Source: Trueperaceae bacterium
GTDB taxonomy: Bacteria > Deinococcota > Deinococci > Deinococcales > Trueperaceae
Length of the DNA: 50,194 nt
Direction of reading: 5' to 3'
NCBI GenBank assembly: GCA_035306665.1
Contig: DATGNP010000071.1
Span: forward strand, 1-50,194
Under the pieces are notes generated by a model. It saw nothing but the letters and a program-made list of their open reading frames with translations, did not search any database and was not told where the DNA came from. Of this stretch, positions 3,954 to 46,469 are shown one piece after another. Position 1 is the stretch's first letter. Every line of letters begins with the position of its first letter. The translations under genes and the position numbers were made by a program.

Positions 3954-5886
<1,933 letters not shown>

Positions 5887-41917: not shown

Positions 41918-42047
41918 GTGGCTTACCTCCGACAGTAGCGACCACGTTACAACCCGAGCGTGAGGCGGCCGCGTCGGGAGCGGGGGCCGCGGTACTGGTG
42001 GTAGACTCCTTGTCGCTATTCCGGCCCGGCGCCGGACAGGAAGCTGC

Positions 42048-42120: not shown

Positions 42121-44229
<2,109 letters not shown>

Positions 44230-44249
44230 GCCAGACAACGCAGGCACGC

Positions 44250-44293
44250 GAAGGCGCCGGCGGGCCCTGTTCCGCCGGCGCCTTCGTTCGTCT
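44250..44293 (+). terminator. Intrinsic terminator downstream of hppA
   Basis: A perfect 14-bp stem, GAAGGCGCCGGCGG-gccctgtt-CCGCCGGCGCCTTC (44250-44285), followed by GTTCGTCT. It begins 21 nt after the hppA stop. Confidence 0.7.
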
Positions 44294-44392
44294 CCGCTCG
44301 TGTAAGCCCACCGGGGGACGAGACCCGGGTGCGGCACGCGCGCCGCGGGAGCCGAGGTCGCGCACAGGCGGCCCCTGAGCGCCGAGCACCAC

Positions 44393-44690
44393 GCGGGTTA
44401 CGCGCCATGACCGGCCCGGTATGCCTTACGGTAGGCCCAAAGAACGATGATAACCCGCATCCGCGGGCCGCAATAGGACGCACGACCATACTTGGGTCCT
44501 ACGCCATGGCGTAGCATCGTAGGCGAAGGAGGTTCTGTTATAGACGAACAGACCCACTTCTTAGGAGAGCGGCCCCAGTCCCACTAGAGGCTCGACCGAG
44601 TCACCCGCGGCCCAGACGCCGAGAACCGGGAACCGACGGAGCACGAAAAGGCGACGGGGTCGTTCTTCATTGTTGCGCCGCGTAGCCCTG
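44393..44690. ncRNA. Candidate unclassified structured RNA in a locally low-GC segment
   Basis: My hand count over 44421-44560 gives roughly 55-60% GC, in an otherwise much GC-richer window. Two long-range helices are nested: 44395-44404 pairs with 44679-88 (10 bp), and 44440-48 pairs with 44659-67 (9 bp). Several local hairpins and mutually exclusive alternative pairings are also present. There is no credible ORF and no match to any RNA family I can recognise. G-U pairs slightly favour the plus strand. Confidence 0.3.
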
Positions 44691-44806
44691 GGTCGGCGCC
44701 GCACTGTCCGTCGCCCCCGCGCGCCCCGCCCCCGCCCGGCACGCACGTCAGGCCGACTCCGGTACCGGCCTCGGCCGGCAGGTGCCCCGCTGTGACGCAT
44801 CACGCC

Positions 44807-44836
44807 TTGCCGGGCACGCTCGGCAACTGTCACACT
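44807..44836 (+). promoter_or_regulatory. Possible sigma-70-type promoter for the ferredoxin gene
   Basis: TTGCCG (44807-12), an 18-nt spacer ending in TGt, then CACACT (44831-36). It lies about 50 nt upstream of the ferredoxin ATG. The match to consensus is weak. Confidence 0.2.
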
Positions 44837-44888
44837 CTCCTTGGCCGCCGTCCATCAGCCCGTGGGCGCGGCGCCTGGAGAGGAAGTC

Positions 44889-45125
44889 ATGGCTTACGTC
44901 ATCGCCGAGCCCTGCATCGGCACGAAGGACGCCTCCTGCGTCGACGTCTGCCCCGTCGAGTGCATCTACGAGGCCGACGACCAGTTCTACATCCACCCCG
45001 AGGAGTGCATCGACTGCGGGGCCTGCGTCCCGGCCTGCCCGGTCGACGCGATCTTCCCCGAGATCGACGTGCCCGCCGAGTGGGAGACGTACATCGAGAA
45101 GAACGCCCGACTCTCGGGCCTCTGA
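44889..45125 (+). CDS. fdxA: 7Fe ferredoxin ([3Fe-4S][4Fe-4S], FdxA type)
   Basis: The ATG follows GGAGAGGAAG. MAYVIAEPCIGTKDASCVDVCPVECIY ... HPEECIDCGACVPACPVDAI. The translation is very close to the Thermus ferredoxin sequence as I remember it. Confidence 0.9.
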   Translation: MAYVIAEPCIGTKDASCVDVCPVECIYEADDQFYIHPEECIDCGACVPACPVDAIFPEIDVPAEWETYIEKNARLSGL

Positions 45126-45314: not shown

Positions 45315-46469
45315 ATGCTGGCTCCAGAGCAGGTCCGTTCCCTCTCCGAGCAGCTCGCCCCGTACGGCGACAGAGTCATCAGCCTCTACCTCGACGTCAA
45401 CCCGGCCTCCGCGGACAACCAGCGCAAGGCCTGGGTCCTGCGCGCGCGGGCGGCGATGGAGCAGCTCGGGCTGCCCAACGGCAGCGCGCGACGCATCGCC
45501 GAGCGCCTTCGGGGCCAGGTCTTCGAGGGGGCCAGGACGGTGGCGGTCTTCGCCCATCCCGACGACGAGGAGCTGTTCCACACCGTCCCCATCGAGCACA
45601 CGCTCCGCGCCGTCACGGGGCACGACGGCGCGATCGCGCGCTTCGGCGAGGCGTTCCTCGCGCCGATCCAGCTCAACCTCCTGAGGCGCCGGCCCAGCCT
45701 GGTGCTGCAGGTCGTGGGCGACCGCGTCAGGGTCTTCCTCGTCTCGCCGGGACGCATCGAGGAGCTGGCGAAGGTGCAGCAGACGTGGGACGAGACGTTC
45801 TGGCGCACCGACGAGGCGACCGGCTCGTTCAAGCCGGGCGAGACGCAGCGCGGCGGCTCGCCGAAGGACGCCTACGAGGAGCGCACGGCGGACTGGATCG
45901 CCAGGCTCTACAAGCGCGTCGCCGCCGACCTGCGCCAGCTCGTCGCGAAGCACGGCGCCGCCCGCGTGATCCTCTCGGGCACGGCCCCCGACCTCGCCGC
46001 GTTCGAGGAGCAGCTCGACCCCGCCACCGCCGCCAAGGTCACGGGCCGCATCCCGCTGCAGCCGAACCCCGAGGCCTCTGCCGGCTCCCTCCACGCGCTG
46101 TTCCTCGAGGCCGTCGCCGCCGCCGAGGAGGCCGAGGCGTCGGCCGACCTCGCGCGCGCGAAGGAGGAGGGCGTCGTCGGCGCCGAGCCGACCCTGGGCG
46201 CCGTCAACGAGAGCCGCGTCCACCTGCTGATCGTCCCCGACGTGCCTTACCAGGAGGTCTGGCGCTGCCGCGACACCGGCCGCGTGTTCGCCACGCGGGA
46301 GCGCGGGGCCGCCGAGTGTGACGGGGCCGGGCTCGAGCCCCTGCCCCTCGCCGACGCCCTGCCGCGCCTCGCCCAGGACCACGGCATGGAGCTGCGCTTC
46401 GTCAGCGGCGACGCCGACCGTCGGCTGCGCGAGGAGCTGGGGGGCCTGGCCGGCCTGCTGCGCTGGTAG
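45315..46469 (+). CDS. Bacterial eRF1/Pelota-like protein (baeRF / VLRF1-type peptidyl-tRNA hydrolase superfamily), putative
   Basis: The ATG follows GAGGAGG. The N-terminal VISLYLDVNP block is typical of bacterial eRF1-like families. The extreme C-terminus LGGLAGLLRW matches the GG(I/V)xxxLR(Y/F) ending of eRF1/Pelota domain 3. A central Gly/Gln loop PGETQRGGS is present. Confidence 0.65.
   Translation: MLAPEQVRSLSEQLAPYGDRVISLYLDVNPASADNQRKAWVLRARAAMEQLGLPNGSARRIAERLRGQVFEGARTVAVFAHPDDEELFHTVPIEHTLRAVTGHDGAIARFGEAFLAPIQLNLLRRRPSLVLQVVGDRVRVFLVSPGRIEELAKVQQTWDETFWRTDEATGSFKPGETQRGGSPKDAYEERTADWIARLYKRVAADLRQLVAKHGAARVILSGTAPDLAAFEEQLDPATAAKVTGRIPLQPNPEASAGSLHALFLEAVAAAEEAEASADLARAKEEGVVGAEPTLGAVNESRVHLLIVPDVPYQEVWRCRDTGRVFATRERGAAECDGAGLEPLPLADALPRLAQDHGMELRFVSGDADRRLREELGGLAGLLRW

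Follow-up and report, generated by a model that had tools for sequence, protein, structure and literature searches.

Small regulatory RNAs (sRNAs) that arise at the 3' ends of bacterial genes and carry promoters of their own are classified as type-I 3' untranslated region (3'-UTR) sRNAs, with DapZ and MicL as examples in enterobacteria. The raiA, ROOL, and OLE RNAs represent a different group, the orphan structured motifs found by comparative genomics, and all three are present in Rfam. A further group comprises translational operators that sequester a Shine-Dalgarno (SD) sequence and leader-peptide attenuators, such as those at the AUU start of infC and in the pyrBI leader. To our knowledge, almost no regulatory RNAs have been described in Deinococcota outside Deinococcus and Thermus, and Hfq is not known from the phylum. 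The element described here is a structured RNA encoded between hppA, the gene for a membrane pyrophosphatase, and a ferredoxin gene in a 50,194-nucleotide (nt) stretch of DNA from a Trueperaceae bacterium (contig DATGNP010000071.1, positions 1-50,194, assembly GCA_035306665.1), the whole of which is referred to as the window. Its conserved core of ~150 nt (44524-44674) lies on the plus strand and is a two-domain structured RNA with covarying helices. The favoured reading, held with slightly better than even confidence, is that of a stand-alone structured sRNA gene of ~150 nt tied to the 3' side of hppA.

Relatives of the RNA were collected by several routes. An nhmmer search with the spacer found copies downstream of hppA at loci L010 and L008, and a copy in the 40%-GC locus L005 was recognised by eye. 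Metagenomes searched with a three-block sequence pattern yielded nine distinct true homologues, and eight further copies came from looking up nine HppA homologues. Three more look-ups, which postdate the model, added a copy in L119 and a tandem pair in L120. The resulting set contains 22 distinct full copies and one truncated copy; every one comes from a Trueperaceae-like contig and has the orientation of hppA. Every copy with an available upstream flank (20 of 20) sits directly 3' of hppA, while contigs L092 and L103 are cut upstream and are uncheckable. This linkage is kept although the gene neighbours of hppA, on either side, are not the same from locus to locus. The element is lacking at loci L118, L121, L001-L004, L006, and L007, and covariance model R1 detects no other significant copy in 819 kb of collected DNA. 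A weak match to the model in L101 (21.9 bits) was rejected as the SD sequence of a real open reading frame (ORF).

The two-domain model is one on which RNAalifold and a hand-checked model agree, and its pairs were counted first on 19 copies and then on 22. In the 22-copy alignment, 94.4% of cells form standard pairs, and 20 of the 35 pairs change on both sides, in 71 such cells. None of 500 shuffles reaches any of five pairing measures, and control registers slid by 1-3 columns are only 35-49% paired. The window's own 153 nt (44524-44676) fold into a minimum free energy (MFE) structure identical to the comparative model, with a z-score of -3.77 and an MFE frequency of 0.15. Over 44385-44700, the fold scores z -3.2 against shuffles on the plus strand and -0.6 on the minus strand. 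G-U pairs, which would be C-A mismatches on the other strand, are frequent in the conserved helices, and the RNA is therefore assigned to the plus strand, as a preliminary description of the window had argued from the same kind of pair. That description had proposed a novel structured RNA of ~300 nt. The RNA is indeed novel, structured, conserved, and covarying; however, the core is half that length and the proposed boundaries, 44393-44690, fail.

The 5' domain is a hairpin, P_SD, whose core pairs an invariant AAGGAGGU with an invariant CACUUCUU; across homologues, AAGGAGGU(CU) faces (AG)ACC-AC-UUCUU. P_SD is 90.9% paired in the pair counts. The lower half, with a G-U pair and a bulge of 2-3 nt, is invariant, and the upper pairs covary among CG, UA, and UG. 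A local hairpin that had been picked out at 44534-44552 is real and forms the apical part of this conserved helix. The perfect AAGGAGG at 44526-44532 is sequestered in the stem and has no ATG, GTG, or TTG after it, much as first described.

The 3' domain is a long irregular hairpin in which an invariant internal-loop pattern, CC-ACUAGAG-GCUC-GA ... GAGC-nGAAAAGG, lies beneath a freely variable apical stem. A 3x3 loop separates its GCUC/GAGC helix from the inner CG.GU..CCC / GGG.ACCG helix, in which six of seven pairs change on both sides. The blocks AGGCUC and AGC are the same in 22 of 22 copies, AT-rich L005 included. The conserved loops were compared by eye only with the kink-turn, loop E, the hammerhead, and signal recognition particle domain IV, and no convincing likeness was seen. 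Coordinates of these and the surrounding features are collected in the table.

Table. Features of the hppA-ferredoxin interval and its flanking genes; positions are those of the window
Feature	Position	Strand	Basis or remarks
hppA, membrane pyrophosphatase, 702 amino acids	42118..44229	+	Translation
GC-rich hairpin directly 3' of hppA	44250..44285	+	Sequence; 14-bp stem in weak ncS01 Rfam alignment
Small hairpin GCCT-tacggt-AGGC, CCCAA box (44436-40), ATGATA (44447-52; TATCAT on minus strand)	44423..44452	.	Conserved boxes
Boxes ATAGGAC (consensus CTAGGAC) and CCATACTTG (consensus CCCTAC/GTC)	44473..44494	+	Second box at -35 position (TACTTG 44489-94)
TAGCAT, putative -10 hexamer of the RNA	44512..44517	+	TAnnnT spacing
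P_SD, 5' hairpin	44526..44562	+	AAGGAGGUUCUGUU (44526-39) pairs with AACAGACC..CUUCUU (44547-62); loop AUAGACG (44540-46)
3' domain, long irregular hairpin	44564..44668	+	Pair counts, MFE
P_long	44564-79 with 44654-68	+	98.2% paired; 9/10 pairs changed on both sides
CC/GG step	44581-82 with 44650-51	+	3' domain
Conserved internal loop	ACUAGAG (44583-89) opposite ACGAAAA (44643-49)	+	3' domain; nGAAAA across copies
Invariant GCUC/GAGC helix	44590-93 with 44639-42	+	3' domain
CG.GU..CCC / GGG.ACCG helix	44597-606 with 44628-35	+	3' domain
Apical stem	44607-27	+	Length and sequence differ completely between copies
U-rich tail (UUCAUUGUU) after P_long	44666..44674	+	Sequence of copies
Ferredoxin promoter TTGCCG, 18 nt, TG-T-CACACT	44807..44836	+	Conserved block, downstream of RNA
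4Fe-4S ferredoxin gene, 78 amino acids	44889..45125	+	Translation, tblastn, Pfam Fer4 in neighbours

The structure lies in a low-GC island within a long spacer, as the preliminary description had pointed out. The spacer (44230-44888, from the hppA stop codon at 44229 to the ferredoxin ATG at 44889) measures 659 nt, one fewer than first given, and at 44450-44599 its GC content is only 57%, compared with 66-83% in the flanks and ~70% in the window. Low-GC islands can be foreign DNA and GC-rich DNA folds well by chance, with the minus strand nearly as stable as the plus strand, so that a chance structure, a decayed gene, or a functionless mobile-element remnant has to be weighed. This explanation is refuted by the covariation, which exceeds all 500 shuffles and all slid controls, and by blocks that stay invariant in host sequence ranging from 40% (L005) to 65% GC, and its probability is close to nil. 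The five ORFs of the spacer have no Pfam match, in line with the statement that the stretch holds no credible ORF and with the exclusion of a pseudogene. By blastn, the spacer has no plasmid or phage similarity, and a scan for viral-contig patterns gave chance matches only. The element is unrepeated in the 50-kb window, and the sole multiplicity among the loci is the tandem duplication in L120. A miniature inverted-repeat transposable element or other dispersed repeat was rejected on the same lack of a second window copy, on the single syntenic site occupied throughout, and on terminal pairing that is not conserved.

The L120 duplication consists of two RNA units at 4780-4945 and 5134-5300, 354 nt apart. 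Between them lie a canonical terminator and three direct repeats of ~15 nt (GCGTGCATCTTTGGG), and each unit carries its own upstream boxes.

No known RNA family accounts for the element, in agreement with the failure to recognise one by inspection. Rfam 15 (4227 models, including those for 6S RNA, transfer-messenger RNA, RNase P, signal recognition particle RNA, riboswitches, raiA, ROOL, and OLE) gives no gathering-score match anywhere in the window. With the threshold relaxed to an E-value of 10, the spacer and two homologues give matches at chance level (E of at least 0.4) and well below gathering scores, none of which overlaps the core with a related architecture. ARAGORN finds no transfer-messenger RNA. 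A CsrB/Rsm-type sponge was set aside, as the core contains only two or three GGA motifs, of which the AAGGAGG ones are enclosed in a stem. A small protein gene was rejected on the absence of ATG, GTG, and TTG in 22 copies, with an ORF that ranges from 12 to >50 codons in an unconserved frame. The literature yielded nothing on sRNAs of Trueperaceae or on an RNA associated with hppA. The family is thus new in having neither an Rfam entry nor a literature record, while its kind, a bacterial structured sRNA, is known.

Several helices of the preliminary description do not survive comparison with the homologues. Its two nested long-range helices are complementary in the window sequence but are not conserved. 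The inner one, AAGAACGAT/GTCGTTCTT, is 49% paired in homologues, a value at shuffle level (192/500), and its 3' strand (44657-44667) pairs instead with 44566-44576 as the covarying 3' arm of P_long. The outer one, GGGTTACGCG/CGCGTAGCCC, lies beyond the conserved block, and duplexes between the two flanks are at shuffled level in the window (z 0.19) and in 16 relatives. The local hairpin GGCTC/GAGTC gives way to the long-range GCUC/GAGC and CG.GU/AC.CG pairings; it is retained only through sequence invariance, and its U-A pair is broken in four copies, where the long-range model has a bulge. The CGAC/GTCG hairpin is merely a competing local fold without covariation support. Of the two pairings put forward as a switch, CTACG/CGTAG is 39.5% paired and not conserved, and GCGGGTTA/TAACCCGC lies mostly beyond the conserved block. 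The 5' third of the RNA as first drawn (44436-44520) looks like promoter or regulatory DNA and not transcript. A conserved 5' RNA domain over 44453-44520 was rejected on single-sequence folds that disagree between homologues; this part is read as promoter because of that disagreement and because a hairpin found there in some relatives, H1, is strong only in one clade.

The upstream region points to a promoter dedicated to the RNA. In all of 20 sequences, a TAnnnT hexamer with variable intervening positions precedes AAGGAGG by 8-9 nt, and it was found again in all three later copies (TATGAT, TAGCAT, TAGCAT), 8 nt before the purine-rich 5' run. A 7-nt insertion in L120 copy 1 places TAnnnT 15 nt before AAGGAGG. 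In 17 of the 20 sequences, TAnnnT is itself preceded at 17-18 nt by a conserved TA(C/G)T(C/T)n box; L117, L114, and L005 have other hexamers in that place. The stretch between the box and TAnnnT is unconserved. The -10 elements of the hppA and ferredoxin promoters are comparable to this TAnnnT. From the hexamer spacing, transcription is predicted to start at ~44523-44525, which would place the SD-like run at the extreme 5' end of the RNA.

Other conserved sequences lie farther upstream. The CTAGGAC and -35-like boxes form an imperfect palindrome, CTAGG-N9-CCTAG, in many relatives; it is centred near -42 and may be an operator. The tetranucleotide CTAG is strongly under-represented in the window (29 observed against 111 expected). 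In one clade, the palindrome has grown to an inverted repeat of 10-13 bp with compensatory changes (z -4.6 to -6.6). An extended inverted repeat was noted upstream in L083, L085, L081, L010, L113, and L103, and could be an operator, an hppA terminator, or part of a longer RNA.

A second block, CCCAA-N6-A-N3-TA (44436-44452; L120 4700-4720 and 5045-5070), is shared by all relatives, lies ~75-95 nt upstream of the RNA, and is duplicated with each L120 tandem copy. In alignment A1 of this block, C2, A4, A12, and A17 are invariant and T16 nearly so, and a GC hairpin abuts the CCAA in most homologues. On the minus strand, the block reads as a good -10 hexamer (TATCAT, TATAAT, TAGACT, and others) followed 7 nt later by TTGGG, and it could be a divergent promoter for an antisense transcript into the hppA 3' end. 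Alternatively, on the plus strand, it could supply a TGnTAnnnC extended -10 element for a longer isoform.

The transcript probably ends at the U-rich tail that follows P_long in all copies and reaches U8 in L005 and U7 in L119. An additional canonical terminator stands within the next 10-30 nt in L114 and in L120 copy 1. In the window, a hairpin GCGCCG-N13-CGGCGC at 44675-44699, which contains CGCGTAGCCC, stands directly after the U-rich tail and may mark where transcription actually ends in this genome. A local compact terminator, GGCGAC-GGG-GUCGUU, in place of P_long is unsupported, with 12 of 15 sequences compatible against 75% by chance.

The main rival to a stand-alone gene, given a minor but real chance, is that the element belongs to hppA as a structured 3' UTR, or as an sRNA derived from that UTR by processing. 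Under this explanation, hppA transcription would read through weak hairpins after the stop codon and end at P_long and the U tract. The element would either act on hppA mRNA, as a stabiliser or regulator, or be liberated through processing. It accounts directly for the position of 20 of 20 checkable copies immediately after hppA on its strand despite varying flanking genes. In most cases, the hairpin after hppA is followed not by a U tract but by CCCAA, and H1 covaries between hppA and the core in six relatives. Conversely, L005 has a canonical stem and U7 terminator between hppA and the element, which supports a promoter belonging to the RNA, and the window has a GC hairpin of 14 bp or more in that position. 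The second L120 tandem copy stands behind a canonical terminator, and the invariant TAnnnT keeps a fixed distance from the 5' hairpin of the RNA. Between hppA and the CCCAA box, the sequence is unconserved and varies in length from ~40 to 213 nt.

The GC-rich hairpin directly after hppA, which the preliminary description had listed as a strong terminator, is present and is probably the hppA terminator. Its sequence is not conserved among relatives.

A number of observations weigh against a stand-alone sRNA gene. An independent sRNA would not need the strict linkage to hppA. The two promoter hexamers match TTGACA/TATAAT poorly, a consensus scan detects no promoter in the window, and the -35-like box is not found in L119 or L120. 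P_long, which encloses ~75 nt, is unusual as a terminator stem. H1, a strong hairpin of 10-13 bp with compensatory changes, lies upstream of the predicted start in six relatives, is weak in others, and is absent in the window and L112; its location makes a longer isoform or an hppA 3'-UTR transcript possible. Finally, a whole-length duplex search of the RNA against ferredoxin initiation regions, crude and uninformative as it is, gave z ~0.

The stand-alone sRNA gene remains the preferred reading, and it implies the following course of events. The RNA would be transcribed from its own, possibly operator-controlled, promoter (-10 TAGCAT, 44512-44517) with a start at ~44523-44525, and would end at the U-rich tract after P_long, at ~44670, or at the next hairpin. 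Its 5' hairpin masks the perfect SD AAGGAGGU by pairing it with the anti-SD-like CACUUCUU through G-U pairs and a bulge. It would thereby control whether 30S subunits or an SD-binding factor can reach this SD mimic, and the 3' domain would serve as a binding module. Both strands of P_SD are invariant beyond the needs of pairing, which suggests that the 16S 3' end or an SD-binding factor recognises the SD as such, with the CU-rich strand controlling its accessibility. A trans-acting regulatory RNA is proposed because invariant loops, covarying stems, and a variable tip suit recognition by a protein, ribosome, or ligand. From the same pattern, we infer that the RNA is not a simple antisense seed. 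As with the predicted ends of the transcript, this function is read from sequence conservation.

A bolder form of this proposal, which is improbable as it stands, is a ribosome-engaging regulator. The SD, with up to 8-10 nt of pairing to the 16S 3' end, and a near-cognate AUH codon (AUA, AUC, or AUU) would capture 30S subunits, and the invariant loops of the 3' domain would bind a dedicated protein or small ligand tied to hppA function, that is, to pyrophosphate or ion energetics. Capture would be conditional on hairpin unmasking or initiation fidelity (IF3). The RNA would then act as a 30S decoy, or ribosome loading would melt P_long and alter RNA fate or read-through.

The same sequences raise the question of whether a tiny ORF or a translation-coupled attenuator is present, in which the SD would serve a near-cognate AUA (44540) and translation through the 5' arm of P_long would block terminator formation or yield a micropeptide. 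An AUA, AUC, or AUU lies 5-8 nt after the SD, at optimal spacing, in 20 of 22 copies, and its third base is A, C, or U but never G. The SD is conserved beyond pairing needs, and a 3-nt insertion or deletion in L083 preserves the frame. Among the first 19 copies, 12-21 codons can be read before a stop within a conserved UAG or UAA block. However, no copy (0 of 22) has a canonical start codon. A 1-nt length difference after CUUCUU shifts the frame of an invariant 25-nt block, CCACUAGAGGCUCGACCGAGUAAC, between lineages; because the block falls in different frames, its conservation is not due to coding. L119 loses both conserved stops, so that its frame runs for >50 codons through the terminator, and the peptides share only residues encoded by the helix strand. 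An open frame of this length is not statistically unusual in GC-rich sequence, and three loci have no co-oriented downstream gene to attenuate. Translation of this kind is accordingly judged decidedly unlikely.

The ferredoxin gene downstream invites the interpretation of the RNA as its 5' leader or riboswitch, with termination at P_long. In 14 loci, the gene follows the RNA in the same orientation at a distance of ~140-420 nt, and the succession of a structured domain and a U tract is reminiscent of an aptamer with its terminator. However, the gene is a frequent and not an obligatory neighbour. The downstream genes are convergent in L005, L010, and L115 and unrelated in L114, L116, L119, and L120, seven loci in which the hppA linkage stays. 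A conserved block with -35 and extended -10 elements, cCTTGcc-N17/18-CTGCTAnAAC, separates the RNA from the gene in 13 of 14 aligned loci (all but L112), and there is no Rfam riboswitch match. Synteny largely refutes the leader interpretation, which retains only a very small probability.

The ferredoxin 5' UTR is ~50-130 nt long and has a conserved-looking hairpin, GAGGG...CCCTCG, in several relatives, which may be a separate regulatory element. The next gene (45315-46469) encodes a bacterial eRF1-like protein, and members of baeRF family 10 occur in the neighbouring loci L110, L111, and L117. L010 has a tblastn match of 41% identity to this protein behind its ferredoxin gene. The proximity of an eRF1-like gene to an RNA with a perfect SD mimic is treated as coincidence only.

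On the other side of the RNA, the true start of hppA is ATG 42118. The longest ORF opens at GTG 41881, while homologues are all ~700 amino acids long from the position of ATG 42118. The 702-residue protein has a 100%-identical cluster, and its closest relatives are Trueperaceae and Deinococcota proteins, with >100 Trueperaceae homologues carrying PF03030. The 240 nt before ATG 42118 contain the hppA promoter, with an extended -10 element (TGGTAGACT, 41999-42007) that is conserved in relatives, and the 5' UTR is ~110 nt long. In L003 (6065-6880), a low-GC relative, ~90 nt of the hppA 3' end are duplicated around an insertion of ~700 nt with two small ORFs that resemble a toxin-antitoxin pair, which appears to have entered the hppA terminus with target duplication. 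Elsewhere in the window, ARAGORN calls a 92-nt tRNA-Phe at 2126-2217 on the minus strand. This call lies inside long ORFs and is probably a false positive; the Rfam tRNA model has no gathering-score match window-wide.

The RNA family has unusually clean comparative support for its size, with 20 covarying pairs from only 22 copies. Its gene structure is defined, and its linkage to a single gene of membrane energy coupling is absolute. Through these properties, it offers a tractable way into the study of RNA-based regulation in Trueperaceae, and the masked perfect SD and the invariant internal loops are concrete experimental handles. If the RNA engages ribosomes or senses a metabolite linked to pyrophosphate, it would represent a new regulatory principle; otherwise, it is one more lineage-specific sRNA.

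Compared with the systems described at the outset, the RNA shares features with each and coincides with none. Like the DapZ and MicL type, it lies immediately downstream of a conserved coding sequence in the same orientation, with conserved linkage, and has what appear to be its own promoter and a 3' end at a stem and U tract. However, its putative promoter follows the stop codon and a terminator-like hairpin instead of lying within the coding sequence, and it has no evident single-stranded seed, its conserved nucleotides being placed in internal loops of a long helix.

The SD-sequestering operators and attenuators of the infC and pyrBI type resemble it in the strong SD paired with a pyrimidine strand, the optimally spaced near-cognate AUH, and a downstream stem and U tract that a translating ribosome could disrupt. 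Unlike them, it has no conserved frame or stop and no obligatory downstream gene, and its frame shifts between lineages while the nucleotides stay invariant.

With raiA, ROOL, and OLE, the RNA has in common covarying helices around conserved loops, a variable apical stem, and restriction to a lineage. It differs in matching none of the 4227 Rfam 15 models and is much smaller than ROOL or OLE. It is also set apart from all three by its strict tie to a single gene and by the perfect SD masked at its predicted 5' end.

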